Source: an uncultured Chloroflexia bacterium
Lineage (GTDB): Bacteria > Chloroflexota > Limnocylindria > Limnocylindrales > CSP1-4
Reading direction: 5' to 3'
NCBI GenBank assembly: GCA_963748625.1
Contig: CAVVJT010000010.1
Span: 1,341,631-1,405,630 of the forward strand
Length of the DNA: 64,000 nucleotides
Part shown: piece after piece, positions 21,928 to 46,972 of the stretch
Layout: each line of letters opens with the position of its first letter
How positions within the stretch are numbered: the stretch's first letter is position 1
Notes under the pieces: generated by a model
The model's input: only the letters and a program-made list of their open reading frames with translations
Told to the model about the DNA's origin: nothing
Database searches by the model: none
Program-made: the position numbers and the translations under genes

Positions 21928-22902
21928 TCAGATGCGCTCGCGCACTGCCTGCGTCCCCGACCCGGACGACTTGCCGATCTGGTCGCCGTGGCGGATGTAG
22001 ATCAGCCAGTACACGGCGCCCACGAACACGCCGCCCCCGATGATGTTGCCGATGGTGACCGGCACCAGGTTCCCGATGAACGCGAGCCACGTGACGTCCG
22101 GGAAAGCCGCGGGCGTCTGCCCGATCGACGTCCAGAACGACTCCGGGGCGAACGTCTTGACGAGCACCGCGAACGGGATGAAGAACATGTTCGCGACCGA
22201 GTGCTCGAAGCCCGCCGCCACGAACGCGGCGATCGGCGGCACGAGCGCCAGGATCCGGTCGGTGGTGGTACGCGCGGAGTAGGTCAGCCAGACGGCAAGG
22301 CACACGAGCACGTTGCACAGGATCCCGAGCAGCAGGGCCTCCGTGAACCCGAGATGGCCCTTCGCCTGGGCGATGCTCAGGGCCGTGAGCCCGAACCCGC
22401 CGCCGGCGGCGCTCCACTCACCGGCGACGAACAGCGTGACCGCGATCCCGACCGCGCCCACGAGGTTGCCGGGGTAGACGATCGCCCAGTTGCGCATGAC
22501 CGACCAGATGCCGATCCGCCGGCTCGCCCAGCTCATGACGAGCAGCGTGTTGCCGGTGAACAGCTCGGCACCGCCGACGACCACCAGGATCAGACCCAGC
22601 GAGAACACGATGCCCATCAGGAGCTTCGTGACGCCCCACGGCAGGCCATCGGTGCCCGGGACGACGGTGGCCACGCCGATGGCCGAGATCGCTCCGAACG
22701 CGATGAAGGCCCCCGCGAGGACGGCCAGCACGAACGTCGGGACGATCCCGGTCTGCGCCTTCTTCGTGCCGATGAGCGAGCCCCGGTGGGCCATCTCGAG
22801 CGGCGTCAGCGCCTCGAACGGCGACTGGGAGGTGGGGGCGGGCCTCTGGCCCGTTGGCGCGGGGACCGCTGGCGCGGGGGTGACCGCCGTGTCCGGGCTC
22901 AT
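21928..22902 (-). CDS. focA: Formate/nitrite transporter (FocA-like)
   Basis: GAELFTGN, LCNVLVCLAVW, GFEHSVANMF, VTIGNIIGG. Confidence 0.9.
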   Translation of the reverse strand: MSPDTAVTPAPAVPAPTGQRPAPTSQSPFEALTPLEMAHRGSLIGTKKAQTGIVPTFVLAVLAGAFIAFGAISAIGVATVVPGTDGLPWGVTKLLMGIVFSLGLILVVVGGAELFTGNTLLVMSWASRRIGIWSVMRNWAIVYPGNLVGAVGIAVTLFVAGEWSAAGGGFGLTALSIAQAKGHLGFTEALLLGILCNVLVCLAVWLTYSARTTTDRILALVPPIAAFVAAGFEHSVANMFFIPFAVLVKTFAPESFWTSIGQTPAAFPDVTWLAFIGNLVPVTIGNIIGGGVFVGAVYWLIYIRHGDQIGKSSGSGTQAVRERI

Positions 22903-22926
22903 CGGGTCCTCCTGTGGAGGCGAGGA

Positions 22927-24000
22927 TCAGCCCTCGCCGAGCTCGCCTGCGCGATACGCCTCGAGGAAGTCCATGGCGAACATGTCCACGCCGTTGAGGA
23001 CGTCGGCCGCCATGCGGAACGGCTTGGCGTCGCGGTCCATCGTGCGCACCTTGTCAACGCTCAGGGTCACCGGGTCGATGATCCCGGAGTCCACACCGTT
23101 GTCGATCCCGAGGGCGACGAAGACGTCGTTGATGAGCTTGCGGTTCGGGAGGCCGAAGGACACGTTCGACAGGCCGCCGGTGAGCCGGACATCGGGGCCG
23201 TGCTCCTCGCGGAACAGCTTCGCCGCGCCGAGGAAGTTGGCCCCGTTCACCGAGTCCACGGCCGCCGGCAGGACGAGCAGGTCGACATGGCAGTCGGCCG
23301 GCGCGATGCCGCGCTCGAGCGCGGCCGCGTAGATCTCGTTGGCATTCTTGACCTTGCCCTCGATGTCGGCCGGGAGCGAGCCCTTGCCGGCGGCCGAGAG
23401 GACGACCGCGGCCTTGTTGGCGGCGGCCAGGTCCAGGGCCTCGGGGCGTTCGGCTGACGCCGAGTTCAGGAGGAGCGGACCGCACGGCGTGGTGCTGGCC
23501 CGGAAGCCCGCCTCGAGCGCCTGGAGCGACGACGAATCGAGCGAGATCGGCACGGCCAGCGTGGGCTCCAGGAGGCGGACCAGCCACTCCATGGCGATGA
23601 CGCGCACGCCCTCGTCGGCGTCGATCTCGTCGACGTTCACGTCGATGTAGTGCGCGCCGGCCCGCTGCTGGCGGATGGCGGCTGCGACGAGGTAGTCCTT
23701 GGCGTCCTGCGCCGCCTCGGGGGTCACGGCGCCGGTCTTGGCGACATCCAGCACGCCGTCGCCGCCCAGCCCGAGGAGCAGGGCGTTGCGGATGTGCTTG
23801 ACCTTGTTCTTCGCGAACTCGGCGGAGGCTGCAACCGGTTCGCTCATCGGGACCATGCGGGAGGCGCCCGTCACGTCCGTGAAGGCCACGAACTCGGCGC
23901 CCTCGACCGTGACGATGTTCTTGCCCTTGCGCTGGTAGCTGCGGGTGGCGTGGACGTTCTCGCCGATGACGATGAACGGGGCGCGCTCGGGGCTGGTCAC
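22927..24000 (-). CDS. Pterin-binding (DHPS-fold) methyltetrahydrofolate:corrinoid methyltransferase
   Basis: GTG after CCAGGAG; FIVIGENVH, GAHYIDVN, ISLDSS, LLNS, GGLSNVSFGLP. Confidence 0.88.
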   Translation of the reverse strand: MTSPERAPFIVIGENVHATRSYQRKGKNIVTVEGAEFVAFTDVTGASRMVPMSEPVAASAEFAKNKVKHIRNALLLGLGGDGVLDVAKTGAVTPEAAQDAKDYLVAAAIRQQRAGAHYIDVNVDEIDADEGVRVIAMEWLVRLLEPTLAVPISLDSSSLQALEAGFRASTTPCGPLLLNSASAERPEALDLAAANKAAVVLSAAGKGSLPADIEGKVKNANEIYAAALERGIAPADCHVDLLVLPAAVDSVNGANFLGAAKLFREEHGPDVRLTGGLSNVSFGLPNRKLINDVFVALGIDNGVDSGIIDPVTLSVDKVRTMDRDAKPFRMAADVLNGVDMFAMDFLEAYRAGELGEG

Positions 24001-24090
24001 GGGTCGCGGTCTCCTGGCGGGTTGGTTGGGGGCCTGGGCTGGGATGGTGAGGTGGATCCTGATGATCATGCGGCCCGGACAGGCCGGCGG

Positions 24091-24119
24091 TCTTGTATCG
24101 CGATCCCGTTCTTTGGTAC
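24091..24119 (-). promoter_or_regulatory. Putative AraC-family tandem binding site GTACCAAnGAA-N11-TACAAGA
   Basis: Minus strand GTACCAAAGAA-N11-TACAAGA; second copy at 31772-31800. Confidence 0.6.
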
Positions 24120-24156
24120 GTCCGTGCCGCGGCAGGCAGCTCTGACGCGGCGGTTC

Positions 24157-24957
24157 CTACCCGGCCTCCGCCTGGCCGACCGGCCGGAGCGGCTCCCAGC
24201 TCTGCTCGCGGAACCTCCGGGGCGTCACACCACGGCTGCGGCTGAACACCTTGGTGAGGTGGCTCTGGTCGTAGAAGCCGCAGGCCTGCGCGATGTCCGC
24301 GATCGAGCGGTCGGTGTTCAAGAGCATCTCGCAGGCGAGCTCCACGCGCGCCTGGCGCAGCAGGGCAGTGAACGTGAGCCCGGTGCGCTCGCGCAGGAGC
24401 CGGGAGAAATGGCTCGGCGAGACGCCCACCGCGCGCGCCGTCTCGTCGCGGGTCAGCTCCTGGTCCGCGCGCTCGCGAATGTGGGTCACCGCGGCGGCGA
24501 TCATCGTCGATGGCGATGACGGCCCGGTCCGCTCGATCGAGTCCACGACCCGGTCCAGCATGCGGTTCAGCCACGCGGCAAGGCCCTCGTCATCCTCGAG
24601 CGCGGCCAGCTCGTCCAGCGACCGCGCTGTCTGGCCGAGCACGTCGGTGGCCGAGGAGCCCGCGGCGATCGCAGCCCGCGACATCATCACCACCGGCTCC
24701 ACGAGGAGGCCCCGGAGCAGGTCGCTGCGTTCCGCGTCGGCCGCATAGATGTGCAGGAGGACGTGGTTCAGGAGCCGGACCGCATCGCGCCGGTCGCCGC
24801 GCGCGATCGCGGCCAGCAGCGACGGCTCGAGGTAGAGATAGAACTCCCGGATCCGGTCGTAGGGACGATCGACCGGGAGGTCGATGGCCGGATAGTCGTT
24901 GGCCATCGGCCGCGCCGTGGACGGCACGTCGGTCTGCGGCCGGGACCTGGACTGCAT
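24157..24957 (-). CDS. AraC-family transcriptional regulator
   Basis: GVSPSHFSRL...RVELACEML...SIADIAQACGFYDQSHLTKVF. Confidence 0.93.
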   Translation of the reverse strand: MQSRSRPQTDVPSTARPMANDYPAIDLPVDRPYDRIREFYLYLEPSLLAAIARGDRRDAVRLLNHVLLHIYAADAERSDLLRGLLVEPVVMMSRAAIAAGSSATDVLGQTARSLDELAALEDDEGLAAWLNRMLDRVVDSIERTGPSSPSTMIAAAVTHIRERADQELTRDETARAVGVSPSHFSRLLRERTGLTFTALLRQARVELACEMLLNTDRSIADIAQACGFYDQSHLTKVFSRSRGVTPRRFREQSWEPLRPVGQAEAG

Positions 24958-25026
24958 CCGCAGAGTGTGAGGCAGAACAGTCGCGGCGTGTTGCCCGTGG
25001 GCGGCGCCGCGTGGCCCAGGCGCCGG

Positions 25027-26316
25027 TCAGGCGCGGGTGAGCCGCTCCGCGATCTCGCACCACTCCCAGAGGCGCTTGGGGTCGTTACGGGCGGTCGAGA
25101 TGTCCTTGAGCGTGAACTCCACAGGGCACCCGTTGGCCTTCGTGACGGCCAGCACGTCCCGGATCTCCTTCTCGGCCAGGTCCGGCACCCACTCGTCCAT
25201 CGCCACCACGGACGGGTTCGGCTTGCGCGAGTAGACGAAGTCGGGGCCGATCGACTCTGCGGCCTTGTCGATCTTGGCCCAGGCGCTGATCGAGATCTTG
25301 CGCACGTTGGGGATCGTGCGGATCGCGTCGATCCGGTTGTGCAGCGGGTCGCAGCAGCCGAACTGGGCGATGCCGAAGCTGGCGTAGTACGGCTGGAAAT
25401 ACTGCGGAACGTATTCCTCGAAGATGCGGTCCGAGACCGACACCATCAGCTGCGACCGGCCGCAGATCCAGACGTCCTTCGCACGCACCTTGTCCACGTC
25501 GAAGCCGGGGGCCGGGATCGCCGACACGTGGGCGCCGGTGCAGTGGATGCGGTCCTGGTCGTAGCCCAGGAGGCCCTTCGCCTCGAGCTGGTCCAGCTCG
25601 GCCATGCGGACCTCCATGTACCGCTTCGCGATCGCGTGGAGATGCTCGGGCCGGTCCATGAAGTCCATGAGGATCGGCTCGGTGCCGCGGAACTGCTCGA
25701 TGTCGTCCCAGAGGCTGTAGGCGAGGAGATTGCCCTCGAAGCCGTGCCAGCCCTGCATCCGCACGCCCAGGATCCCATCGAGGAGCTCGTGGGCCTTGGC
25801 CTCGACCGCGGCGGTGGCTGCCACGTCGAGGGTCAGCTCCGGCTCGCGGAACTTCGCGATGTCCTCGGGCTCCGCCAGCTGGTCGGCATACGCGTGGCTC
25901 TGGACAACGTTGCCCTCGCCCTGGTCGAGGGTGTCGTCCTGGATGCTCAGTCCCCAGCCGGTGGAGCGGATGACCTTGCCGAAGTCCATGTACGGACGGA
26001 CGACCATGTCCACGCGGGCGTGGTTCCAGCGCCACAGCTCGCGGCGGATGCGGGTCTCGACCTCGCGGGCGAAGGGGTCCGTCGACACGACGGCAAGCTC
26101 GTCGGCGCCGGGCAGGCCGGGCACCGCCATCTCGTGCCATGGGATCTCGTCGATCATGGCCATGGGGCGCTCGGGGTGCAGGTCGTTGAGCGCGGTCCAC
26201 TCGCGGATGCGCTCGTCCTGGACGGGGAGTGCGGCGATCTCGGCGAGCCTCGATGCGAGCTCGCGGACGATGGCGACGTCGGCCTGCGGCAGGCCGGTGC
26301 TGGTCTCGGCGGTCAT
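25027..26316 (-). CDS. URO-D/methyltransferase-superfamily protein (paralog 1)
   Basis: ATG after GAAGGGA; FGCCDPLHNRID...NVRKISIS..., YSRKPNP, EFTLKDIST; directly downstream of the corrinoid protein. Confidence 0.75.
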   Translation of the reverse strand: MTAETSTGLPQADVAIVRELASRLAEIAALPVQDERIREWTALNDLHPERPMAMIDEIPWHEMAVPGLPGADELAVVSTDPFAREVETRIRRELWRWNHARVDMVVRPYMDFGKVIRSTGWGLSIQDDTLDQGEGNVVQSHAYADQLAEPEDIAKFREPELTLDVAATAAVEAKAHELLDGILGVRMQGWHGFEGNLLAYSLWDDIEQFRGTEPILMDFMDRPEHLHAIAKRYMEVRMAELDQLEAKGLLGYDQDRIHCTGAHVSAIPAPGFDVDKVRAKDVWICGRSQLMVSVSDRIFEEYVPQYFQPYYASFGIAQFGCCDPLHNRIDAIRTIPNVRKISISAWAKIDKAAESIGPDFVYSRKPNPSVVAMDEWVPDLAEKEIRDVLAVTKANGCPVEFTLKDISTARNDPKRLWEWCEIAERLTRA

Positions 26317-26344
26317 CGTGGGTGTCCCTTCTCTCGCTCGTGCG

Positions 26345-26971
26345 CTACCGGGCCAGCAGGCCGCGGGCCAGGTCCACCGCGGCACCGGCGTCGGGGGCGT
26401 AGCCGTCGGCGCCGATCTGCGCCGCGAACTCGGGGGTGACCGGCGCGCCGCCCACGACGACCCTGGCCGGCAGGCCGGCGGCCCGCACGGCCTCGACCAC
26501 GCCGCGCATGCCGGGCATGGTCGTGGTGAGCAGCGCGCTGATGCCGATGATGTGGACGTCGTGCTCGCGGGCCGCCTCGACGAAGCGGGCCGCCGGGACG
26601 TTGACACCGAGGTCGATGACCTCGATGCCGCCGCCCTTCCACATCATGCCCACGAGGTTCTTGCCGATGTCGTGGAGGTCCCCCTCCACCGTGCCCACGA
26701 TGGCCCGGAACTCGGGGGTCACGCCGGCCGCGAGCAGGGCGGGCTCGAGGATCTCCGTGCCGGCCTTCATGGCCCGGGCGGCGATCAGCATCTCGGGGAC
26801 GAACAGCTCGCCCTCCTGGAACTTGCGGCCCACCACGTCCATGGCCGCGGTCATCGCGTCGAGGACCGTCGTGGGGTCGAGCCCCTCGTCGAGGGCGGCC
26901 TGGGTGAGCTCCGCTGCGGCCTTGCGGTTGCCCGCCTCCACGGCGGCGGTGAGGGCGGCGAGGTCGGCCAT
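26345..26971 (-). CDS. Corrinoid (cobalamin-binding) methyltransferase protein
   Basis: Cap domain ELFVPEMLIAARAMK; B12 motif GDLHDIGKNLV, SALLTTT, VVVGGAP. Confidence 0.95.
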   Translation of the reverse strand: MADLAALTAAVEAGNRKAAAELTQAALDEGLDPTTVLDAMTAAMDVVGRKFQEGELFVPEMLIAARAMKAGTEILEPALLAAGVTPEFRAIVGTVEGDLHDIGKNLVGMMWKGGGIEVIDLGVNVPAARFVEAAREHDVHIIGISALLTTTMPGMRGVVEAVRAAGLPARVVVGGAPVTPEFAAQIGADGYAPDAGAAVDLARGLLAR

Positions 26972-27039
26972 GGTGTCGTTACTCCTGTCGTTCGGTGGTT
27001 GGAACAAGAGCCGCCAATCCGGCGGGAGGGTGTTGAGCT

Positions 27040-27990
27040 CTAGGCGCCGCCGGGCGTGAACCTGACCGGCAGGTTCCACCAGACGTACATGTTCGGGGAG
27101 GAGGGGTAGAACACCGGATCGCCGGCAAGCTCGTACTCGCCCAGCACCGGGAGGGCCTCCTCCATCACGATCCGGGCCTCAACACGGGCGAGCGGTGCGC
27201 CCAGGCAGCCGTGCACCCCTTCGCCGAAGCCCACGTGCTTGATGACCGGACCCCGGTCGAGCGTGAAGGCGTCGGGGTCGTCGAACTGGCGGTCGTCGCG
27301 GTTTGCGGCACCCACCACGGCGACCACGCGCGAGCGCGCTGGGATGGTCACGCCGTGCAGCGTCACGTCGCGCATCGCTGTGCGGGCGGTCAGTTGGAGA
27401 GGGGTCGCCCAGCGGACCGCCTCCTCTACTGCCACCGGGACCAGGGACGGGTCCGCCAGGAGGCGGCGGCGCTGCTCCGGGTGCTCGGCGAGCAGCTTGA
27501 ACAGCGTCCCGATCAGCCCCGCCGTGGACTCCACCCCGCCCAGGAACAGGATCATCATCAGCCCCATCACCTCGGCGGCCGGCGTGATGTGCTCGTCCGT
27601 GAAGGGCACCCCGTTGATCGAGGCATGGACGAGGGTGCTGACGACGTCCTCGCGCGGGTTCGTCCGGCGGTCCTGCAGCAGGTTGATGAAGTACTCGCGG
27701 ATGCCCTTGTCGGCCTCGATCGCCTCCGGCGTGAACTGCGGCGTGCCGGGCACCCGGCCCTTGAGCCCGTGGACCCAGCGCTCGAGCTGGTCGCGCTCCG
27801 CCTGGTCCTCCTTGGGCAGGCCCATGATCGAGAAGAAGACATCGAAGGGCGTGGGCCAGGCGATCTCCTGCGCGAGGTCCACGGTCCCCCGCTCCCGCCA
27901 GGCAGCCATGTGCCCGCGCACCACGTCACGGATCGCATCCGCCTGGGCGCCCACCCGACGGGGCAGGAACCAAGGCTCTTGCAAGTGCAC
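27040..27990 (-). pseudogene. Cytochrome P450, 5'-truncated (lacks about 90 N-terminal aa)
   Basis: GGVEST, EEAVR, FGEGVHGCLG; similarity to the paralog begins abruptly at PWFLPRR, next to the promoter/operator. Confidence 0.8.
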
Positions 27991-28006
27991 TAGAGCGCTC
28001 TAGTAT
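27979..28006 (+). promoter_or_regulatory. Sigma70-like promoter with a LacI-type operator in the spacer
   Basis: TTGCAA-16-TAGTAT; perfect palindrome ACTAGAGCGCTCTAGT at 27989-28004. Confidence 0.8.
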
Positions 28007-28143
28007 CGACGCGCGGACAGTAGGACGATGAAGGCGGGTCGTCAATACCCATCCTGCAGCCGAGGACCGGGCTGTTCCCCGGCCAGGGCACGCGGAGACC
28101 TGGCCCCACCGAGCACCAGCCGTCGCCATCGAGGGCTTGCCAA

Positions 28144-29392
28144 GTGGCCGTCACCGGTTACGACCCGTTCAGCCAGGAGTTCCAGGCCGACCCGTTCACC
28201 GTCTACCGGTGGATGCGCGACGAGGCCCCGGTCTACTACAGCGAGAAGTGGAACTGGTGGGCGCTGTCCCGCTGGGACGACGTCCGCGCCGCGGCGCTGG
28301 ACCCGGACACCTTCCAGTCCTACGAGGGCATCGACCTCGACGCGACCGCCACCGACCAGGGCGGCCCGGGCTTCATCCCCAACATCGACAACCCGCGCCA
28401 CGACGAGCTGCGCGGCGTGGTCCAGCCGCCGATGCTGCCGCGCCGGATCGCGAAGTACGAGGAGTCGATCCGCGCGGTCGTGCGCTCGCTGATCGACGCG
28501 TTCCGCGACCGGGGCGAGGTGGACATCGTCCAGGAGCTGGGCTGGCCGATGCCCAACGAGGTCTTCTTCGACCTCCTCGGGCTCTGCCGACGCACGGGAG
28601 GAGGGCCGCGAGGACCTCCAGCGCTGGATCCACGAGCTCAAGCACCGCGAGCCCGACAACCCCGACCTCACGCCCGTCTCCCGCGCGGCGACGGCCGGCA
28701 TCAACGCCTACTTCATCAAGCTGCTCAACGACCGGCGCGCCAATCCGCGCCAGGACTTCGTGACGCACCTGGTCACGTCGCAGATCAACGGCGTCCCCTT
28801 CGCCGACGAGGTCATCACGCCCGAGTCCGAGATCATGGGCATGATGCGCGTCCTCTTCCTGGGCGGCGTCGAGTCCACCGCGGGCCTCACGGGCTCCATC
28901 TTCAAGCTCCTCGCCGAGCACCCGGACCAGCGCGAGCTGCTCCTGGCGGACCCGTCCCTGATCCCCGCTGCCGTCGAAGAGGCGGTCCGCTGGTCCACGC
29001 CGCTCCAGCACGCGGGCCGCACCACCTCGCGGGAGGTCACCCTCCATGGCGTGACGATCCCCACGGGCGGACGCGTCGTCCTCGTCTACGGCTCCGCCAA
29101 CCGCGACGAGCGCCAGTTCGACGATCCGGACGACTTCATCATCAACCGCGGCACGTTGCGCCACCTGGGCTTCGGCGAGGGCGTCCACGGCTGCCTCGGT
29201 GCGCCGCTGGCCCGGCTCGAGGTCAGGATCGCGCTCGAGGAGGCGCTCCCGGTCCTCGGCGAGTACGAGATCGCGGGCGAGGCGAAGCGGTACATGACCA
29301 CGCCGAACATGTACGTGTGGAACAACCTGCCGCTGTCGTTCCGGCCGCAGGCGCACGGCGCGTCGCAGGCCCAGGCGGAGCCGGTCGCATGA
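28144..29392 (+). CDS. Cytochrome P450 (frameshift near 28585-28600)
   Basis: DPFTVYRWMRDEAPV, DNPRHDELR; LFLGGVESTAG, EEAVRW, FGEGVHGCLG. Confidence 0.9.
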
Positions 29393-30347
29393 GCACACCG
29401 GTCGAGGCCACCATCCGCGTCCGCGTCGAGCGCAAGACCGTCGAGGCCGACGGGGTCGTGTCGCTGACGTTGCGCCCGGTCTCCGGCGAGGCGCTGCCCC
29501 ACTGGCACCCGGGCGCTCACGTCGACCTGCTGTTCGACGGGCTGCCGGTGCGGCAGTACTCGCTGTCGGGCGTCGCCGGACGACGTGGCCACGTACCGCG
29601 TCGGCGTCCTGCGCGAGGCCGGCGGGCGGCGGCGTGTCGCTGTTCATCCACGACGCGCTGGCCGAAGGCGCGGAGATCGCGATCGCCGGGCCGCGCAACC
29701 ACTTCCGGTTCGTGCCCGCGCCGCGGTACCTCTTCATCGCGGGCGGCATCGGCATCACGCCGATCCTGCCGATGATCGCCGCGGCCGAGGCGGCCGGTGC
29801 CGACTGGCGGCTGGTCTACGGCGGCCGCACGCGCTCGTCGATGGCGTTCCTCGACGAGCTGGCCGCGTACGGCGACCGCGTGTCGCTGCGCCCGCAGGAC
29901 GAGTCCGGGCTGCTGGACCTGGACGCGCTCCTCGGGTCGCCCGAGGACGAGACCCTCGTCTACACCTGCGGGCCCGAGCCGCTGCTTGCGGCCGTCGAGG
30001 CGCGCATGGAGGCGTGGCCCCACGGGTCCCTGCACCTGGAGCGGTTCGCACCCAAGCCCCTGGCCGAGCCGGAGCGCGCCGGCTCCTTCGAGGTGGTGCT
30101 CGCCAAGAGCGGGCGCACGCTCGTGGTGCCGTCCGACCGGTCGATCCTCTCGATCGTGGAGGAGGCCGGGGTCCCCGTGTTGTCCTCGTGCGCGCACGGC
30201 ACGTGCGGGACCTGCGACACGCCCGTGCTCGAGGGCGTCCCCGAGCACCGCGACGCCGTCCTGACCGACGATGAGAAGGCGGTCAACGACTGCATGATGA
30301 TCTGCGTCTCGCGGTCCCTGTCCGACAGGCTGGTGCTCAACCTCTGA
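29389..30347 (+). CDS. PDR/VanB-family FMN/[2Fe-2S] reductase (frameshifted)
   Basis: ATGA overlap with the P450; PGAHVD, RQYSL, GPRNHF, AGGIGITP, YTCGP, CAHGTCGTC...ICVSR. Confidence 0.9.
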
Positions 30348-35221: not shown

Positions 35222-35339
35222 CGGCGGAGTGTGGTGGATGCGCGCCTCGCCCACAAGCCCCCGGCAGGGCTGGTGCAGCCGGCAGTCGAGTCGCGCCCGC
35301 GCGGTGCCGGACGCAGCCGGGGGCTGGTGTGGTCGCCGG

Positions 35340-37764: not shown

Positions 37765-37778
37765 CCCGTCGCTGTAGT

Positions 37779-37865: not shown

Positions 37866-38933
37866 ATGACGACCGCGGCCGCAACCCCCGCGCCCAATTC
37901 CACGGACGCCCCCGTGCCCCAGGCCGGCATATCGATCGGCAGCCTCGTCCGGCGGCCCGAGACCGGCGCCCTGATCGGCACCGTCGGCGTCTTCATCTTC
38001 TTCGCCGCATTCGGCGGCGTCCAGTTCGTCTCCCCCGGTGGCTTCGCCGCGTGGCTGAACGTGGCAGCGGAGCTTGGCATCATCGCCATCCCGGTCGGCC
38101 TGCTGATGATCTCAGGCGAGCTCGACCTGTCGGTCGGCTCCGTGATCGCGGCGTCGTCGATGACGTTCGCGATCATCGGCGGACACTTCGGCATGCCAGT
38201 CGGCCTGGCGATGATCATCGCCCTGCTGCTGGGCGCCCTCGTCGGCTTCATCAACGGCCAGCTGGTGACCCGCACCCGCGTGCCGAGCTTCATCGTCACC
38301 CTGGCCACCAACTTCGCCCTCGCCGGCATGACGCTCGGCTTCAGCCGCCTCCTGACCAACAACGTGAGCGTGCCGATCGATGCCGGTGAGCCGATGCGCT
38401 CGCTGTTCGGCCAGTTCATCGCGAACCAGTTCGAGGTCATCATCTTCTGGTGGATCGCCGTGATCCTCGTGGTCGGCTGGATCCTCCACGTCACGAAGTT
38501 CGGCAACTGGATCTTCGCCATCGGCGGCGACCTCGAGTCCGCGCGCACCAGTGGGATCCCGACCAACCGCGTGAAGATCGCGCTCTACATGTCGAGCGCC
38601 ACCGCGGCCGCGTTCGTGGGCATCTCCCAGACGATCCTCTACAACAGCGCCCAGGTGGCCAAGGGCCAGAGCTTCGTCTTCAACTCGATCATCGCCGTGG
38701 TCATCGGCGGTGTGCTGCTGACCGGCGGCTACGGCTCGGTCTTCGGCATCGTCCTGGGGACGCTCACCTTCTCGATCGTCAACCAGGGCATCTACTTCAC
38801 CGGCTGGAACGCGGACTGGGCGAGCCTGATCCTGGGCATCCTGCTGCTGGCCGCGGTCCTCATGAACAACACCTTCCGCAAGATGGCGCTGTCCTACAAC
38901 CCGGGCGCGAAGAGCAAGAAGGCGAAGGGCTGA
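37866..38933 (+). CDS. Sugar ABC transporter permease (CUT2)
   Basis: GELDLSVGS, VPSFIVTL, AVVIGGVLLTGGYGS. Confidence 0.93.
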   Translation: MTTAAATPAPNSTDAPVPQAGISIGSLVRRPETGALIGTVGVFIFFAAFGGVQFVSPGGFAAWLNVAAELGIIAIPVGLLMISGELDLSVGSVIAASSMTFAIIGGHFGMPVGLAMIIALLLGALVGFINGQLVTRTRVPSFIVTLATNFALAGMTLGFSRLLTNNVSVPIDAGEPMRSLFGQFIANQFEVIIFWWIAVILVVGWILHVTKFGNWIFAIGGDLESARTSGIPTNRVKIALYMSSATAAAFVGISQTILYNSAQVAKGQSFVFNSIIAVVIGGVLLTGGYGSVFGIVLGTLTFSIVNQGIYFTGWNADWASLILGILLLAAVLMNNTFRKMALSYNPGAKSKKAKG

Positions 38934-38936
38934 GCG

Positions 38937-39809: not shown

Positions 39810-39902
39810 GGCCGGGGCATCGGGATGGACGAATCCTCGGTGCCCGGCCGGTGCGGCGTTCCCGGCCGCTCCGGGGTTCCTGGTGCAGGCGGCCTCCCCG
39901 GC

Positions 39903-41045
39903 ATGTACGGGCGCGCGACCATGGCCGATGTCGCACGACGTGCGGGTGTCTCGATCTCGACGGTGAGCCGTGTGCTCGCCGGCGAGGCGAAGGTCCGGCC
40001 GGCGACATCGGCCGCGATCGACCGGGCCGTGAGCGATCTGGGCTACCGCCGCAATGAGGTCGGGCGCTCGCTGCGCACCGGCTCCACCGGGGTCATCGGC
40101 CTGCTGGTGGACGACCTGGGGGACGGCGGCTCGGCAGCGCTGCTGCGCGGGATCGACGCGGAGGCAACCGCCGCCGGCTACTCCGTGCTGCTCGCCACCG
40201 TGGACCGAACGGCACCCGGGGCCGCCCAGCGCTTGGGCGCGATGGCCGCCTACCGGGTAGATGGCATGGTCATCGCCTGCGGGCTGCCGGGCAAGGAGCT
40301 CGCCGGGCTGCTGCGCCACGTGCGCGTGCCGTGCGTCGTCATCGACGGCGGGCCCCTGCCAGCCGATGCGCTGGGCGTCGGCACGGACGATGTCGGCGGA
40401 GCGGCAGCCGCCGCGCGCCACTTGTACGACCTTGGTCACCGCGACGTGGCCTACCTCCGTGGTCCGGCTGCATCACCCAGGGCGCAGGCCCGCACGCGCG
40501 GGTTCGCTGCCGGATGGCTGGCCGCGGCCGGCGTATCCACCGCTGCGGAGGTCAGCAGCGATGGGACGCACGACGGGGGCATGCACGCGGTCGAGCGCCT
40601 GCTCGCCAGCGGCTGGCGGGGCACCGCGATCGCATGCATCAACGACACCGCTGCCATCGGGGCCATGGCGGCACTCGCGGCCGCTGGCCTGCACGTGCCC
40701 GATGATGTCAGCGTGGTGGGCTACGACGACCTGCCGGCTGGCACCTGGGTCGACCCAACGCTGACGACCGTCCGGCCGCCGACGGCCGAGATCGCTTCCG
40801 TGGCGGTCACCGCGCTGGTCTCGCGCCTCAACGGGCTCCAGGCGCCGTCCTTGCTCGATGCAGCCGCGATGCCGCCGACCCTGGTGGTACGCGAGTCGAG
40901 CGCACCGGTCTCCGTGCGCCCGCCTGCACTGGGTGTCGAACCAGCCGTGCCGACCGAACCCCGAAGTGTCCGCGACCGGACCCGGACCGCCGTGCCGGGC
41001 CCGCGCCGCCACCACGCCACGGCGCCCACTGCAGCGTCCCGCTGA
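39903..41045 (+). CDS. LacI-family transcriptional regulator (second copy)
   Basis: ATMADVARRAGVSISTVSR, VPDDVSVVGYDD, PTLTTV, LVVRES. Confidence 0.9.
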   Translation: MYGRATMADVARRAGVSISTVSRVLAGEAKVRPATSAAIDRAVSDLGYRRNEVGRSLRTGSTGVIGLLVDDLGDGGSAALLRGIDAEATAAGYSVLLATVDRTAPGAAQRLGAMAAYRVDGMVIACGLPGKELAGLLRHVRVPCVVIDGGPLPADALGVGTDDVGGAAAAARHLYDLGHRDVAYLRGPAASPRAQARTRGFAAGWLAAAGVSTAAEVSSDGTHDGGMHAVERLLASGWRGTAIACINDTAAIGAMAALAAAGLHVPDDVSVVGYDDLPAGTWVDPTLTTVRPPTAEIASVAVTALVSRLNGLQAPSLLDAAAMPPTLVVRESSAPVSVRPPALGVEPAVPTEPRSVRDRTRTAVPGPRRHHATAPTAASR

Positions 41046-41057
41046 GAGGAGTCACCC

Positions 41058-41849
41058 ATGGCCACCCCGATGTTCCCGCTCGCCGTCACCACCGAGATGT
41101 TCTGGCAGGAGGTCCCGTACCTGGAGCGCGTCCGGCGCATCAGCGACCTGGGCTTCCAGGTGGAGATGTGGGACTGGACCACCAAGGACCTCGACGCCGT
41201 CGCGGCCCTGGGCGCCACCTGGTCCACGATGACCGGCTACATCCACGGCGACCTCTACGACGCCGACGGCGGCCGCGAGATGGTCCGCACCGCGAGGCTC
41301 TCGATCGAGGCCGCGAAGAGGATCGGGTGCCCGCGCCTGGTCGTCCACGGCGCCGAGCTCGACGGGTCGCGCAACGGCCTGCCCTTCCGGCCCCAGGACG
41401 TCGTCACCGGGCAGATGTGGCTCAACGCCTACCGGACCCTGTCGGAGCTCGCGGACCTGGGCGAGGCCAACGGCGTCGTGTTCTGCCTCGAGAACCTCAA
41501 CCTGTACGTGGACCACATGGGCACCCCCTTCGGCAAGGCGGAGGACACGCTGACCCTGGTGTCCACCCTCGACCGCCCCGGCGTGCGGATGATGCTCGAC
41601 CTGTACCACGCCCAGATCGGCGAGGGGAACCTCATCGAGCTGTGCGCGAAGGCGGGCGCGAACATCGGCGAGATCCAGGTGGCCGACGTCCCCGGGCGCA
41701 TGGAGCCCGGGACGGGCGAGGTGAACTGACACGCCGTGGCGGTCGCGCTCAAGGCGCAGGGCTACACGGGCGTCGTGGGCCTCGAGGCCACCGCGTCGGG
41801 CGATCCCGTCGTCGCGATGGAGGCCTTCCGGGCCGCATTCAGCGAGTAG
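41058..41849 (+). pseudogene. Hydroxypyruvate-isomerase-family TIM barrel with an in-frame TGA at 41727
   Basis: LENLN, DLYHAQIGEGN, QVADVPGRMEPGTGEVN*HAVAVALKAQGYTGVVGLEA continues in frame to TAG at 41849. Confidence 0.8.
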
Positions 41850-41927
41850 GCGCCGCGGGGGCAGCGCGGGGGAGCACGTCGGCCGGCTCCTCCGGTTCCG
41901 GCACCGGTCACCGGTCACCGGTCGATC

Positions 41928-42096: not shown

Positions 42097-42100
42097 AACG

Positions 42101-43339
42101 ATGACGATCGCGACCGACACCCACGTGCTGCGCGAGCTCGCGCACAAGCTCACCGAGATCGCGGCGCTGCCCGTGCAGCACGAGCGCATCCGCCAGTGGA
42201 CGGCGCTCAACGCGCTGCGGCCCGAGCGGCCGATGGTCTCGATCGACCAGATCCCGTGGCACGAGATGAACGTCGACGACGAGCTCACCCTGCGCTGCGA
42301 GGACCCGTTCCACCGGGAGCTCGAGACCACGCTGCGCCGCCAGCTCTACCAGTGGCGGCACATGCCCGCGGACCTGGTGCTCCTGCCGCGGATCGAGGTC
42401 CCCAAGGTCATCCGCAACGACGGCTGGGGCGTGCAGATCACCGAGGACACGCTCGCCACCGATGCCGGCAACGACATCGTGAGCCATGCGTTCATCGACC
42501 AGGTCCAGACACCCGAGGACGCGGCCAGGATCAGGACCCCGAACGTCTGGCTCGAGGAGGCCGCCACGGCGGAACGCGAGGCCCGGGCGCACGAGATCTT
42601 CGACGGCATCCTCGAGGTGCTCATGCAGGGCCTGCTGCCCTCGTACGAGCTGTGGGACGAGATCGTCCAGCTGCGCAACCCCGAGGTCACCCTGTTCGAC
42701 CTCGCGGACCGGCCCGAGTTCATGATGGAGGTCGCGCAGCGCTGGTCCACGGCACACCTGGAGTGGCTCGACCGGCTCGAGGCGCAGGGGCTCCTGGGCC
42801 GGCACCAGATGTGGATCCACTGCACGGGCGCCTTCACCGACGAGCTGCCGGCCGAGGGGTACGACCCCGCGAAACCCCGGGCGAAGGACCTGTGGACCTA
42901 CGGCATGGCCCAGATCTTCGGCTCGGTGTCGGCGGCGATGCACGCGGAGTTCGAGCTGCCGTTCGCGCAGGCCTGGTACGGGCGCTTCGGCCTCGGCTAC
43001 TACGGCTGCTGCGATCCGCTCCACAACAAGATCGACATCATCCGCCAGATCCCCAACGTGCGGAAGATCTCCATCAGCCCCTGGGCGAAGCTCGATCTTG
43101 CCGCGGAGCGCATCGGCGGCGACTTCGTCATGTCGCGCAAGCCCAGTCCCACCCCGCTTGCGATGGACTCGCTCGACCTCGACGCCTCGGAGGCCGACGT
43201 TCGACGCACGATCGAGGTCTGCCGGGAGAGCGGGACGCCCGTCGAGCTGATCCTCAAGGACATCAGCACCCTCCGCTACGAGCCCCAGCGCCTCTGGGCG
43301 TGGGAGGAGCTCGTCATGCGCATCGTCAACGAGCAGTAG
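42101..43339 (+). CDS. URO-D/methyltransferase-superfamily protein (paralog 2)
   Basis: Colinear with 25027..26316: WTALN..PERPM, IPWHEM, IHCTGA, YGCCDPLHNKID, ELILKDIST. Confidence 0.8.
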   Translation: MTIATDTHVLRELAHKLTEIAALPVQHERIRQWTALNALRPERPMVSIDQIPWHEMNVDDELTLRCEDPFHRELETTLRRQLYQWRHMPADLVLLPRIEVPKVIRNDGWGVQITEDTLATDAGNDIVSHAFIDQVQTPEDAARIRTPNVWLEEAATAEREARAHEIFDGILEVLMQGLLPSYELWDEIVQLRNPEVTLFDLADRPEFMMEVAQRWSTAHLEWLDRLEAQGLLGRHQMWIHCTGAFTDELPAEGYDPAKPRAKDLWTYGMAQIFGSVSAAMHAEFELPFAQAWYGRFGLGYYGCCDPLHNKIDIIRQIPNVRKISISPWAKLDLAAERIGGDFVMSRKPSPTPLAMDSLDLDASEADVRRTIEVCRESGTPVELILKDISTLRYEPQRLWAWEELVMRIVNEQ

Positions 43340-43439
43340 CCACCGACCAGGCGTCCAGTCCTCGATCCGAGGTTCGGGGATCGTCTCGTCCTATCCGCAA
43401 GCGTACGTGGCCGATCCGCCTGTGCGCGTCGGGCCATCT

Positions 43440-44453
43440 TCAGTTGCCGTCGCTAACGCCCCAAACCAGCCCCATCGCCTCGATACGCGCAATCGACTCG
43501 GCCACACCCGCCGCGGCAGCAAGATCTTCTGCCAGCGCCTGCGCACGTTCGACGCTCGTCCGCCCGCTGGGGTCCCCAACGTGGAACACGAGTCGAGCGA
43601 CGCCCGCCACTTCAGCCGCAAGGATCTGGACCAGCGTCATCATGACCCGGTTGCCGCCGAACGCCCCGCATCCCCAGAAACCGGAGTGGATGGCGACCAT
43701 GGCATCGGGGCCGGCCGTCCGCCTCGACTCGAGAACGGCGGCCCGGAAACCAGAGTGGGCCGTGCTGATGGCAAGGCCGATCTGCTCCCGCTGGTATCGG
43801 CCGCGACCCCCGTACGGAGCCACGATCGCGATGATGTTGGAGGCCGTGGGCGGATCGATCCGTGTCGTCGCCTCGCGAACGGCGTCGGCCGTTGCCCTCG
43901 CGAACGCCATGCCATACAGCCAGCTCGGGCCGCCGACCCCTGACCCCGGTGCGGTACGGATACGGATGCGCCGCTCGGCCCCCATGACGAGCACCGGCGT
44001 CGGACGACCGTTCTCGATCGTCGTGGTCGGACGGCCTTCCGCGACGAGCGCCTCGCGGAGCGACCCCAGGACCGGATGCTCGGCGACTTGGATCTCGTCC
44101 TGGGCGAAGAGGGCCGAGCCATAGGCGTAGAAGAGATTGGGATCGGCGAAGTTGACGTGCCACTCGACGCCGACGCCCGGATCAAGGATCGGGCGGTAGT
44201 CGTAGTAGCCATCCCGAACCACGACCAGTCGGGCGGCGCTGGCATGGTCTACCTCTCGGGCAAACGGAAGCTCCGGCCAGCGGCTGTACTCGAGCTGACC
44301 AGCGTGGGCGGCGCCGGCCGGACACGCGATCTCGAAGGCAACCTGCTTGTTCTCGTTGCGACGCACCCCCGGGTGCTGCCGCACCAGCTGCGCCGCTGGG
44401 TAGGTGCGCCGCTGGAGCGGCTCGGGGACCGACGGATCTCGCGGTTCGGTCAA
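43440..44453 (-). CDS. Poly(ADP-ribose) glycohydrolase (PARG)-like macrodomain protein
   Basis: TTG after GGAGGGGG; VNFAD...AQDEIQ..EHP; HSGFWGCGAFGGN. Confidence 0.75.
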   Translation of the reverse strand: MTEPRDPSVPEPLQRRTYPAAQLVRQHPGVRRNENKQVAFEIACPAGAAHAGQLEYSRWPELPFAREVDHASAARLVVVRDGYYDYRPILDPGVGVEWHVNFADPNLFYAYGSALFAQDEIQVAEHPVLGSLREALVAEGRPTTTIENGRPTPVLVMGAERRIRIRTAPGSGVGGPSWLYGMAFARATADAVREATTRIDPPTASNIIAIVAPYGGRGRYQREQIGLAISTAHSGFRAAVLESRRTAGPDAMVAIHSGFWGCGAFGGNRVMMTLVQILAAEVAGVARLVFHVGDPSGRTSVERAQALAEDLAAAAGVAESIARIEAMGLVWGVSDGN

Positions 44454-44760
44454 TTCCCCCTCCACTATCGGGCCGTGCTTTCGTCTACCGCCGTGAAGTC
44501 GCACCTGCGACAGCCAGTTGGGCGTGGCCTGGGCGGGGGGTCGCTCGTCAGGACGTCGTGGCCTCGGTCGGCCAAGTCCAGGTCTTGGAATTCACGCAGA
44601 ACGGCCCCTGAGCCGGCAGGACGCCCACGGCGACTCTACGCCGTTCTCCAGCTGTTTCGCCTGCATCTCTCAGTCTGCCGTCCGGTTGGATCGCGCTGAG
44701 CGGCCGGACACGTTCGTCCGACCGGCATGGATCTGCGTCGACTGAGGCGGCGCCTTCTGC

Positions 44761-45618
44761 TCAGCCGGACGCGTCCGGCGCCCAGCCCTCGAGCGTGAGG
44801 GCCGACGCGACTGCACGGGCCAGCTTCGTCCCAACCTCGCCGAACCGGGGCAGGGGCTGGCCGGTCGCCTCGTTGCAGTAGAGGCCGCGGCGCACCTCGA
44901 TCATCACCGAGGCCACGCGCCGGTCGAGCTGGTACGCGGACAGCGGCACGATCGTTCCGGCGAAGGGTCTGTCCACCGTGACCGCGAAGCCCTCGGCAGC
45001 AAGTCCGGCCACGAGGGCGTCGGCGAGGGCCGACGGCGTGTGGAAGGCGTCCGTCCCGATGCAGACGTCGGGGCGGTCGGGGGCCTGGTCCGGCTCGGAC
45101 GCCAGCGGCTGCGTCGCGAACGAGTGGCAGTCGAGCAGCAGGCACCTGCCGTCGGTGGCCAGCCGCTCGCCAACCAGCCCCGCCAGGTCCGCGTGGTAGG
45201 GGGAGAAGTAGGTGCCCAGCAGCGCGTCGCGCTCTCCATCGAGGAGCTCGCGCAGCGCTGAGCCATCGGACGTGCGCGTGTAGACGGCGCCCTGCCCGAC
45301 GGCGGCCATCGGCTCCTGCGCGTCGTCGGTGAACCGCTCCGGGTCCACGACCAGCCGCGAGACGCCGTTCACAAGCCGCGTCGCGCCGAGCCGGCCCGTG
45401 AACGCGAAGAGCGTGTCCGTGTGCCAATCGGTCATGTGGACGAGTTCGCGTGCGAGGGCCTCGTCGCTGACGAGCAGGCGGGCGCGCACCTCCGAGGGGA
45501 TCACCGTGGAGGCGTGCGGGATGTGCGCGACGATCGGCGACGCCATCCCGGGCGGGCCGATGATCGAGCGCGGCAGCAGCCTGTCCACGTCCCCCTCTCG
45601 GCTGGGTTGAGTAGCCAT
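44761..45618 (-). CDS. N-formylglutamate amidohydrolase family protein
   Basis: HIPHAS, TDWHTD, SRLVVDPERF, PYH, LDCHSF, SVMIEVRR. Confidence 0.9.
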   Translation of the reverse strand: MATQPSREGDVDRLLPRSIIGPPGMASPIVAHIPHASTVIPSEVRARLLVSDEALARELVHMTDWHTDTLFAFTGRLGATRLVNGVSRLVVDPERFTDDAQEPMAAVGQGAVYTRTSDGSALRELLDGERDALLGTYFSPYHADLAGLVGERLATDGRCLLLDCHSFATQPLASEPDQAPDRPDVCIGTDAFHTPSALADALVAGLAAEGFAVTVDRPFAGTIVPLSAYQLDRRVASVMIEVRRGLYCNEATGQPLPRFGEVGTKLARAVASALTLEGWAPDASG

Positions 45619-45643
45619 CGTCGAGGCGACCGCCGTGCCGACG

Positions 45644-45830
45644 TCAGATCGTGGCGAGGCGACGGCTGAACGCCATGAGCGCGTCGCCGCGGAGGACGAA
45701 CGTCACGCGTTCGATGCCCGTCTCCCCGAGCAGGTGGTCTCGAACGGCGCGTAACGCGACGTCGGCCACCGTGTCGATCGGGAACCCGAAGGTGCCGCCG
45801 CTGACGGCCGGGGCGATCACAGAGCGGCCG
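45644..45830 (-). pseudogene. C-terminal remnant of a MacroD-type macrodomain protein
   Basis: Minus-strand translation RSVIAPAVSGGTFGFPIDTVADVALRAVRDHL..IERVTFVL; no N-terminus. Confidence 0.7.
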
Positions 45831-45853
45831 ACGGAGCGGAAAGGCGCGGACGC

Positions 45854-45980
45854 CTAGCGCAGGTACGTCCAGCCCGCGGTGCGCTTCTGGATCTCGGCCA
45901 GGTTGTGCAGGCTCGACTCGCGGGCCCGCTCCTCCCAGGCGAACACGCAGACGGTCATGATCCCGTCGAACTGCAGTTCC
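45854..45980 (-). pseudogene. C-terminal remnant of an IolH-like sugar-phosphate isomerase/epimerase
   Basis: FDGIMTVCVFAWEERARESS...* with no upstream part. Confidence 0.65.
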
Positions 45981-45985
45981 TCGAC

Positions 45986-46972
45986 ATGCACCTCGGCGTC
46001 TACAACGCCTGCCTGGCCAACAAGCCGCTGGGTGAAGCTCTCGACATCATTGCCGGCCTCGGGCTCAACAGCGTCGAGATCAACTCCGGAGGCTTCCTCC
46101 CGCCCATCCACCTTCCCGTTGCCGAACTCCTCGCGAGCGAGGATGCCCGCAAGGCGTACCTCGGCGAGTTCGCCTCGCGCGGCCTGAAGCTGACGGCGCT
46201 CAACTGCAACGGCAACCCGCTCTACCCCGAGCCAGACTTCCCGCACTCCCGCGACCTCCACGAGTCGATCGAGCTGGCCGCGCTCCTGGGCGTGCAGCGC
46301 GTGGTGACGATGTCCGGCGCGCCGGGTTCCGAGCCCGGGACGCGGGTGCCCGTGTGGAACCCGCTGCCCTGGTGGAGTCCCTTCCTCGACATCCAGGACT
46401 ACCAGTGGGAGGTGGCCATCCCCTACTGGAAGGACATCCAGGCTCGCGCGGCCGATGCGGACGTGAAGATCGCGATCGAGATGCACCCGGGCAACATCGT
46501 CTTCAACCCGCGGACGATGCACCGCCTCGCCGAGGAGATCAATGCGACCCACGTCGGCGCCGAGATGGACCCGAGCCACCTGTTCTGGCAGGGAATCGAC
46601 CCGGTGCTCGCTGTGGCCGACCTCGGCGGGCTCGTCTACAACGCTGCCGCCAAGGACACGCGCATCAACGAGATGGCGAAGATCAACGGCGTCATCGACG
46701 ATGCGTTCTCGCGCGTCGCACCCGGCGAGCCCGGCTACCTGCCGCTGGGGCCGGGGACCGCGTTGAGCGGCTGGCCGAAGCGCCCGTCGTGGGACTTCGT
46801 CGCCGTGGGACGCGGGCACGACACGGCCTACTGGGCCGACCTGATGCGCGCCTTGACGAAGGTCGACCCGGACATGGCGATCAACATCGAGCACGAGGAC
46901 CAGGAGCTGGACCCGATGGAGGGCCTCCGGTTCGCGGCCAACACGCTCCTGGAGGCCGAGAAGCTGCTCTGA
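45986..46972 (+). CDS. Sugar phosphate isomerase/epimerase (xylose-isomerase-like TIM barrel, inositol-locus type)
   Basis: MHLGVYNACL, LNCNGNPL, IEMHP, EMDPSHLFWQ, AKD, NIEHED. Confidence 0.88.
   Translation: MHLGVYNACLANKPLGEALDIIAGLGLNSVEINSGGFLPPIHLPVAELLASEDARKAYLGEFASRGLKLTALNCNGNPLYPEPDFPHSRDLHESIELAALLGVQRVVTMSGAPGSEPGTRVPVWNPLPWWSPFLDIQDYQWEVAIPYWKDIQARAADADVKIAIEMHPGNIVFNPRTMHRLAEEINATHVGAEMDPSHLFWQGIDPVLAVADLGGLVYNAAAKDTRINEMAKINGVIDDAFSRVAPGEPGYLPLGPGTALSGWPKRPSWDFVAVGRGHDTAYWADLMRALTKVDPDMAINIEHEDQELDPMEGLRFAANTLLEAEKLL

Follow-up and report, generated by a model that had tools for sequence, protein, structure and literature searches.

We analysed a 64,000-nt stretch of DNA from an uncultured Chloroflexota bacterium (the window; its source genome is referred to as G000, and L- and G-numbers denote the loci and genomes of relatives) and found at positions 21928-43339 a cluster of genes which, on balance, is probably an accessory catabolic island of an aerobic member of this phylum. 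The island would import a methylated sugar or cyclitol and demethylate it by means of a protein family that we term MTX and a corrinoid protein, with a cytochrome P450, a PDR/VanB-type reductase and a PanB-like protein providing a second route. We establish here the gene content of the island, the fold of MTX, a synteny conserved among relatives and a predicted contact between MTX and the corrinoid protein. Because the G+C content of the window is ~70%, genes were called by third-position G+C, and the called open reading frames (ORFs) were then scanned with Pfam and NCBIfam (Table 1). The nearest relatives are designated Chloroflexi, Chloroflexia or Candidatus Limnocylindrales.

In the proposed pathway, a CUT2-type ABC transporter under LacI control would import the methylated carbohydrate or cyclitol, and MTX would move its methyl group to the Co(I) corrinoid protein. 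A pterin-binding methyltransferase (MeTr) would hand the methyl group to tetrahydrofolate (THF), after which MetF(V), Fch and a FolD encoded elsewhere would oxidise the C1 unit, with formate possibly leaving the cell through a FocA-like channel. RACo-type activases, likewise encoded elsewhere in the genome, would re-reduce inactive Co(II). The trio of P450, reductase and PanB-like protein would form a second, O2-dependent route for the same or a related substrate, yielding formaldehyde or a hydroxymethyl unit that would enter the folate pool as methylene-THF. What we infer in this scheme is which class of substrate is used, which way the methyl group flows and what the P450 does.

The two MTX proteins of the island, MTX1 and its paralogue MTX2, gave no match in Pfam even at an E-value of 10 (the PF01208 hidden Markov model included) and none in NCBIfam, and a sequence search of the PDB returned only four chance matches (E 0.31-1.6). 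A search of 5.8 billion proteins, with 8,000 candidates scored at a threshold of E ≤ 0.001, revealed at least 2,813 homologues, of which the best 120 all lack a Pfam domain and are unnamed or labelled 'hypothetical'. Scanning species-representative genomes for MTX yielded 353 encoding stretches, and the 79 loci kept from these span Chloroflexota (including Candidatus Limnocylindrales), Armatimonadota, Poribacteria, Planctomycetota, Latescibacterota, Spirochaetota and others. An AlphaFold2 model of MTX1 built from a 25-sequence alignment reached a mean pLDDT of 87.8, and comparing it with the PDB by Foldseek gave 26 matches at E ≤ 0.001. Uroporphyrinogen decarboxylases (URO-D) came out on top (E 1e-6, TM 0.4-0.5), and the 23 matches listed to E 0.001 comprised 21 URO-D entries and two chains of a Methanosarcina mazei methyltransferase (4ay7/4ay8), with TM values of 0.4-0.6; the cobalamin-independent methionine synthase MetE followed below the threshold at E 1.4e-3. 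In line with this, profile alignment by hhalign of MTX with 12 PF01208 proteins encoded beside MTX genes gave a probability of 95.2% (E 2.7e-8, 254 columns). The methyltransferase branch of the URO-D/MtaA family carries an HxCG...C zinc motif, and in the hhalign alignment C330 of MTX pairs with the cysteine of the HxCG motif of these neighbours, the position of the histidine being occupied by G328. Within the MTX alignment, H149, C329 and C330 are invariant and H266, C267, H334 and C405 nearly so. The nearest clusters in the ESM Atlas (scores 0.97-0.98) were automatically named URO-D-domain protein, and in one of them 30% of the members carry PF01208. The label 'URO-D-like', which a note made earlier on this DNA had given to these proteins, therefore holds for fold and profile despite the failure of the PF01208 model. 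We conclude from these model-based comparisons that MTX is a new family of the URO-D fold which appears distantly related to the URO-D/MtaA methyltransferases and is predicted to work alike.

A complex of MTX1 with the corrinoid protein was predicted with a score of 0.76, a value reached by 116 of 157 solved complexes and by 2 of 215 mismatched pairs, and the best of three controls scored 0.00. The prediction runs agreed in at least 80% of the contacts, the partners had pLDDT values of at least 82, and the predicted interface lies on conserved residues (220-229 and 300-306 of MTX, 67-76 in the helical cap domain of the corrinoid protein). Likeness to solved corrinoid complexes may account for part of this score; as a prediction, the complex supports binding of the two proteins. 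The corrinoid protein contains the motif D108-x-H110-x-x-G113 (DxHxxG), invariant in 17 sequences, and together with MeTr and MTX1 it makes up a complete three-part set on one strand. Of the 79 MTX loci searched by tblastn, 55 have at least 1 kb on both flanks; a corrinoid-protein homologue lies no more than 600 nt from MTX in 25 of the 79 and no more than 5 kb away in 27. In four loci (L056, L059, L063 and L074) the genes follow the order MTX, corrinoid protein, PF01208 protein, which indicates two different methyltransferases around one carrier.

The genes around MTX point to a carbohydrate or cyclitol as the probable substrate class. In the island, the best NCBIfam model for the substrate-binding protein (SBP) of the transporter is that of the rhizopine SBP (NF052284, 174.9 bits), and its best sequence match in the PDB is 4ru1 (E 3.8e-32), a structure which presumably holds myo-inositol. 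Elsewhere in the source genome, at G000:C10:432000-477000 (L091, L099, L100), a further MTX gene (copy 2, distinct from MTX2 of the window and 74% identical to MTX1) is found with a GFO/IDH/MocA dehydrogenase, LacI, a TIM barrel and a CUT2 transporter. Immediately next to this cluster are two inositol (iol) gene sets, including iolG (365 bits, cut-off 355), iolB (295 and 297 bits, cut-off 205) and iolD (850 and 890 bits, cut-off 715) as well as iolE-like genes, a methylmalonate-semialdehyde dehydrogenase (MMSDH) and a split transketolase. In L023, an ABC transporter is followed by an SDR gene, a TIM1 orthologue (86%), GFO/IDH/MocA, a TIM barrel, the corrinoid protein and MTX. The scan of distant loci covered 145 ORFs of 25 loci, with five long ORFs and L081, L083, L086 and L089 excluded, and found as MTX neighbours PF01208 proteins in eight loci, GFO/IDH/MocA in four, rhaM in two and glycoside hydrolases in three (an apiosidase-like enzyme; melibiase with GH127; GH94 with GH9), besides fucose isomerase, sulfatase, LacI and aldo/keto reductases. 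A carbohydrate or cyclitol context, as had been proposed before for the island alone, is thus recurrent in the MTX family. Two side observations concern these clusters: the iol sets on C10 are accompanied by a CO-dehydrogenase-like molybdenum hydroxylase, and in the window a 693-aa ORF joins a complete LacI to DUF922, whereas the orthologous LacI of L022 has 358 aa, so that the ORF could be either a true fusion or the product of a lost stop codon.

To see how far the modules stay together, we compared the genomes of the genus. An SBP orthologue (E ≤ 1e-60) occurs in six of 70 genomes, G000 included, and in none of 150 other genomes sampled from the family, a sample that held six genus genomes. 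LacI and the PanB-like gene adjoin the transporter in all six SBP-bearing genomes, P450/reductase genes were found in five of the six and the corrinoid protein also in five, both misses being at contig ends. A P450 orthologue (E ≤ 1e-80) is likewise present in six of the 70 genomes, five of them in common with the SBP set; of the two that differ, G184 has the SBP without a P450 match (72% complete, the contig ending at PanB) and G197 a P450 without an SBP match (780 contigs). In L020 (G224:C4), P450-reductase, PanB (-) and LacI (-) precede SBP-permease-ATPase-corrinoid protein-MTX-MeTr, and in L022 (G217:C10) PanB, P450, reductase, P450 and LacI occupy one strand and SBP-permease-ATPase-corrinoid protein-MTX-MTX the other. 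G016 shows the order MTX-corrinoid protein, TIM1 (85%), GFO/IDH/MocA, PanB, P450-reductase-P450, LacI, SBP-permease-ATPase. The two remaining arrangements are cut by contig borders: MTX-corrinoid protein-ATPase-permease-SBP, a strand change and LacI-PanB up to the contig end in G184, and, from the contig start, ATPase-permease-SBP, a strand change, LacI, LacI, PanB, a P450 fragment, reductase and P450 in G180. The modules that the earlier note had combined into one pathway do, accordingly, co-occur in SBP-bearing relatives within the genus. We consider it very unlikely that they are neighbours by chance or through mosaicism of the island, without a common pathway. Gene order does vary among genomes, MeTr-MetF-Fch form a separate unit in G004, and conservation of the island does not extend to the genes right of 43339; against this, in L020, L022 and L096 the genes SBP-permease-ATPase-corrinoid protein-MTX follow one another head to tail on a single strand, and the SBP and P450 orthologues have five of their six genomes each in common, among 70.

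Both P450 copies carry the haem motif FGEGVHGCLG and EAVR (expected FxxGxxxCxG and ExxR), and the reductase carries the cysteine motif CxxxxCxxC...C. No gene accompanies the P450 genes more constantly than the PanB-like gene, and PanB enzymes reversibly transfer a hydroxymethyl group between a 2-oxo acid and methylene-THF. These two points would also suit a different function of the trio, in which the corrinoid and P450 systems act on different compounds: the trio might hydroxylate a C-methyl or alkyl group that the PanB-like protein then removes as a hydroxymethyl unit in the form of methylene-THF, or it might act on an aromatic or lipid substrate unrelated to the imported sugar, as do the nearest solved P450s, whose substrates are sterols, fatty acids and methoxybenzoate. 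We regard this as unlikely, given that the trio lies beside the same LacI and SBP genes in five of six SBP-bearing genomes and that no aromatic-ring or lipid catabolic genes were seen in the island. Under the proposed demethylation scheme, the corrinoid and P450 branches may serve different oxygen levels, methyl positions or substrates.

Among the genes for C1 handling, MeTr scores 160 bits against NF005719, below the cut-off of 259, and reads in a single frame against its G004 orthologue (83% identity); Fch scores 62 bits against NF045657, below the cut-off of 275. MetF combines an MTHFR and a MetV-like domain in one ORF in G003 and G004, which in G000 is split by a frame break. The FocA-like protein narrowly misses the focA model TIGR04060 (289.2 bits, cut-off 290.1) and passes the fnt model TIGR00790 (240.9 bits, cut-off 232.3). 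In G000, a block of AraC-MTX1-corrinoid protein-P450-reductase-PanB lies between MeTr and MetF. Three RACo genes, none of them in the window, are present in the genome, one with PF14574 and PF17651 at G000:C10:985836-987380 plus two paralogues, together with two DUF1638 genes and FolD on C2. The genome also encodes haem-copper oxidase subunit I (474 bits), and a cobalamin-dependent glycine-betaine demethylase is documented in aerobic bacteria (PMC12478193). The corrinoid branch therefore need not be anaerobic, and the division into an aerobic and an anaerobic route that had been suggested for the island is not borne out.

Two other regions of G000 hold related genes. At G000:C10:975-994 kb (L090), a hub comprises a PF01208 protein, DUF1638, MeTr, MetF(V), a RACo activase, a corrinoid protein and two MttB-family genes, and DNA matches to MetF, MeTr and the corrinoid protein are clustered in several of the genus genomes searched. 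At G000:C4:205000-224900 (L092), AraC (a paralogue of that of the window, here in a corrinoid and sugar cluster), a corrinoid protein, a 470-aa PF01208 protein, permease, SBP, a double ATPase, a second corrinoid protein, MeTr and L-rhamnose mutarotase lie on one strand; the DNA of this second corrinoid gene matches that of the window's at 98% identity over 632 nt, its flanking genes being far more diverged.

The direction of methyl flow could in principle be the reverse, with methyl-THF methylating the corrinoid protein and MTX O-methylating a sugar or cyclitol, or MTX could be a thiol methyltransferase of the MtaA/MetE type, for instance one belonging to a split methionine synthase. MtaA and MetE methylate thiols at a zinc site, MTX keeps conserved histidine and cysteine residues, and the hub on C10 (URO-D, DUF1638, MeTr, MetF, RACo and corrinoid protein) resembles the parts of a split methionine synthase, such as have reportedly been discussed in an earlier study. 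The company of MTX is nevertheless catabolic, consisting of importers, LacI repressors, dehydrogenases and iol genes. G000 moreover has four MTX copies, which fits substrate-specific catabolic paralogues, and the order of MTX, corrinoid protein and PF01208 protein in the four loci named above likewise weighs against this alternative. Both forms of this alternative are, in our view, quite improbable.

Several observations weigh against the proposed demethylation island. At 174.9 bits the SBP is far below the rhizopine-SBP cut-off of 420 and is therefore not a MocB equivalog; CUT2 proteins bind many different sugars, and the window contains neither a GFO/IDH/MocA dehydrogenase nor an iol gene. 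By tblastn, 52 of the 79 MTX loci, many of them short or distant, lack a corrinoid-protein homologue. The top 60 PDB matches of the P450 are generic (CYP125, YjiB, CYP130, CYP199A4 and CYP116B-like fusions), with no pointer to a sugar-specific enzyme among them, and we know of no established role of a PanB-like protein in demethylation. MeTr-MetF-Fch-FolD form one same-strand unit in G004, in an unrelated context behind 2-oxoacid dehydrogenase genes. Among the genomes examined, FocA stands beside MeTr in G000 only; because the FocA homologues of relatives lie on other contigs, the formate export proposed earlier is linked to the island by G000 alone and is weakened accordingly. The co-occurrence counts overstate independence, since the relatives are kin. 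Finally, this copy of the island has its frames broken six times in 5.4 kb, one P450 is truncated and a nonsense codon interrupts TIM1; the local density of ~74 frame switches per 100 kb is about ten times the genome mean (401 candidate same-strand switches in 4.63 Mb of G000, or 8.7 per 100 kb, as counted by a GC3-Viterbi heuristic that is uncalibrated on a finished genome), and rpoB and rpoC are intact.

To judge this damage, the frames of the window genes were compared with intact orthologues in relatives. Against the L020 P450, P450b aligns with residues 2-163 in frame 1 and 159-415 in frame 2 (79% identity), and the reductase falls into three frames against its L020 counterpart, with two breaks within 29571-29629 (60 nt). 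Residues 1-230 and 231-263 of the L020 PanB-like orthologue map to different frames, the last 35 residues being lost; likewise, the single MetF ORF of G003 and G004 maps to two frames in G000, and Fch occupies two frames against its G004 orthologue. P450a matches the L020 P450, intact at 417 aa, over residues 84-410, so that ~83 N-terminal residues are missing, and in-frame stops lie upstream. TIM1, ~85% identical to its L023 orthologue over 260 residues, has a TGA where the latter has tryptophan. Reading this TGA as tryptophan was rejected, as other genes end at TGA and there was no further sign of a changed code. The reading frames of FocA, MeTr, AraC, MTX1, the corrinoid protein, the ABC genes and MTX2 are intact, that of MTX2 aligning with relatives in one frame throughout. 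At the P450b break, contigs from three sequencing runs of two studies have one base less at 28581, one less at 28583 and an extra G after 28590, a net change of -1 base which restores the P450b frame; one 170-nt contig is otherwise identical to the window at this site. A metagenome contig carries ~337 further bases between 27977 and 27985, where the 5' part of P450a is missing. The matching runs held at most 0.12 of the sampled words, and the indels listed from them cover the P450b break only.

At least the P450b break thus looks like an assembly error, and we think it likely that most of the frame breaks are errors of the assembly consensus rather than real decay. The two shifts of the reductase within 60 nt also resemble a noisy consensus, both MetF paralogues of G000 are frame-changed at different places, a second MttB gene and another MTX gene are frame-shifted too, and candidate switches occur genome-wide by the heuristic count. 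We give less credence, though by no means little, to an island that is real but decaying, in which P450a, P450b, reductase, PanB-like gene, local MetF, Fch and TIM1 would be pseudogenes and only the corrinoid branch and the transporter functional. The truncation, the six breaks and the TGG-to-TGA change are confined to 27.0-34.3 kb and TIM1, the genes listed above as intact are unbroken, and the heuristic density is high here while rpoB and rpoC are undamaged; in addition, a substitution to a stop codon is unlike the usual indel error of long reads. The three closely spaced indels at the P450b break, with their net change of -1 and their absence from the contigs of three runs, argue in the other direction. 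Gene-level conclusions from the G000 assembly need care in either case. Its stated contamination is 7.74%, and outside the island a bacterial alpha-2-macroglobulin-like gene (window 50422-55500, minus strand) is broken up among several frames, the same heuristic placing switches at 53584, 54205 and 55492.

Among known systems, the three-component corrinoid O-demethylases of anaerobes (Acetobacterium, Desulfitobacterium and the Mto system of Methermicoccus) resemble the island in their DxHxxG corrinoid protein and adjoining TIM-barrel methyltransferase, and their organisation into MT-I, corrinoid protein, MT-II and activase has its counterpart in the THF-side methyltransferase and the RACo-type activases of G000. 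As described in PMC3727330 and PMC8630106, these anaerobic systems transfer the methyl group from an ether to THF. In contrast, MTX falls outside all Pfam families, PF01208 included, G000 has an oxidase and its activases lie outside the locus, and the island is embedded in a context of sugar or inositol import and catabolism instead of methoxy-aromatics. MtgBCD of aerobic marine bacteria (PMC12478193) combines a stand-alone cobalamin-binding protein with a separate methyltransferase and is tied to folate/methionine C1 metabolism, and is alike in being a cobalamin-dependent demethylation system of an aerobe. Its substrate-side enzyme belongs to the MttB family and acts on a quaternary amine, whereas that of the island is MTX in a carbohydrate context, the MttB genes of G000 being at another locus.

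The rhizopine (3-O-methyl-scyllo-inosamine) moc system is paralleled by the rhizopine SBP as best NCBIfam match of the island SBP (175 bits against a cut-off of 420) and by the iol genes in G000, and demethylation of a methyl-cyclitol would precede inositol catabolism here as well. The moc demethylase is a Rieske-type oxygenase; no Rieske-type oxygenase gene was found among the Pfam matches of the island. The island P450 is served by a single PDR-type reductase partner, as in the fused CYP116B class. CYP236A, which acts on 6-O-methyl-D-galactose, is comparable by gene context in that a P450 and its redox partner lie among sugar-utilisation genes, and oxidative O-demethylation would give formaldehyde likewise (PMC6292453); CYP236A is absent from the names of the top 60 PDB matches of the island P450. 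For pinitol, PMC9788770 gives a P450-type demethylation in a fungus and indicates that demethylation is unneeded in Erwinia. In a literature search that left subscription journals mostly uncovered, no account came to light of methyl sugars or methyl inositols being demethylated in a corrinoid-dependent way. The island is set apart from the known systems by the family of its substrate-side enzyme, its carbohydrate context and its conserved P450/PDR-reductase/PanB-like companions.

Many sugars and cyclitols of plants, algae and microbes are shielded from breakdown by methyl ethers. In the literature found, the enzymatic removal of such groups from carbohydrates is oxidative (P450) only; a B12-dependent route would be non-oxidative. 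As a tentative generalisation, the members of the large MTX family might be O-demethylases that depend on a corrinoid protein and act on methylated sugars and cyclitols, with a P450 route to the same substrate alongside in some genomes. The users of MTX would then be aerobic Chloroflexota and polysaccharide degraders of the Armatimonadota, Planctomycetota, Poribacteria and Latescibacterota. If true, this would explain what the MTX family, with its at least 2,813 unnamed proteins, does. Carbohydrates would join aromatics, amines, methanol and thiols among the substrates of corrinoid methyltransferases, the turnover of carbohydrates in soils and waters would be linked to the supply of B12, and O2-independent demethylases would become available to biocatalysis.

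Regarding the gene inventory, all elements named in the earlier note were found at the positions it gave, by Pfam and NCBIfam; it was correct as far as it went and mentions neither P450a nor the AraC regulator nor the damage to this copy.

Table 1 Genes of the island and its right flank in the 64,000-nt window.
Feature	Position	Strand	Evidence and remarks
FocA-like formate/nitrite channel	21928-22902	-	PF01226, E 6.7e-72
MeTr-like pterin-binding methyltransferase, proposed methylcorrinoid:THF methyltransferase (MT-II)	22927-24069	-	PF00809, E 2.2e-19
AraC-family regulator	24157-24957	-	HTH_18, E 4.9e-25
MTX1, 437 aa, proposed substrate:corrinoid methyltransferase (MT-I)	25027-26340	-	URO-D fold by model and hhalign
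Corrinoid (B12-binding) protein	26345-27079	-	PF02310, E 1.8e-27; PF02607, E 2.3e-19
P450a, 5'-truncated inverted paralogue of P450b	27040-28038	-	PF00067
P450b	28120-29392	+	PF00067; frame break 28581-28605
PDR/VanB-type reductase, NAD-binding and C-terminal 2Fe-2S	29389-30347	+	PF00175, PF00111; two frame breaks
PanB-like (ketopantoate hydroxymethyltransferase family)	30639-31426	-	PF02548, E 1e-35; frame break ~30737
MTHFR with MetV-like C-terminal domain (MetF)	31902-33586	+	PF02219, PF12225; frame break 32411-32426
FchA-like methenyl-THF cyclohydrolase (Fch)	33574-34261	+	PF04961, E 5.1e-27; frame break ~33980-34014
LacI regulator (36391-35393) running on into DUF922 region	34313-36394	-	Pfam LacI, Peripla_BP_3, DUF922
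CUT2 substrate-binding protein (SBP)	36649-37764	+	PF13407, E 1.2e-35
ABC permease	37866-38933	+	PF02653, E 1.1e-45
ABC ATPase, single domain, 290 aa	38937-39809	+	PF00005, E 4.1e-30
Second LacI-family regulator	39825-41045	+	Pfam LacI, Peripla_BP_3
TIM1, xylose-isomerase-like TIM barrel	41058-41849	+	PF01261; in-frame TGA 41727-41729
MTX2, MTX1 paralogue	42101-43339	+	51% identity to MTX1
N-formylglutamate-amidohydrolase-family gene (FGase)	44761-45618	-	right of island
TIM2, second TIM barrel	45905-46972	+	right of island

The genes to the right of position 43339 (a PARG-like ORF, FGase and TIM2) are not conserved with the island: FGase was found in none and TIM2 in one of the 79 MTX loci. 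The 1.4 kb at 43336-44763 have a weak third-position G+C signal and hold the former ORF, which has a weak match to a PARG-like macro domain (E 2e-9). To the left of the island, window positions 17062-21798 (minus strand) encode an aminophosphonate-oxidoreductase-like flavoprotein (TIGR03329, 343 bits, short of the cut-off of 633), a K+ channel-like protein and a 762-aa protein with a weakly glucosylglycerate-hydrolase/trehalase-like C-terminus.

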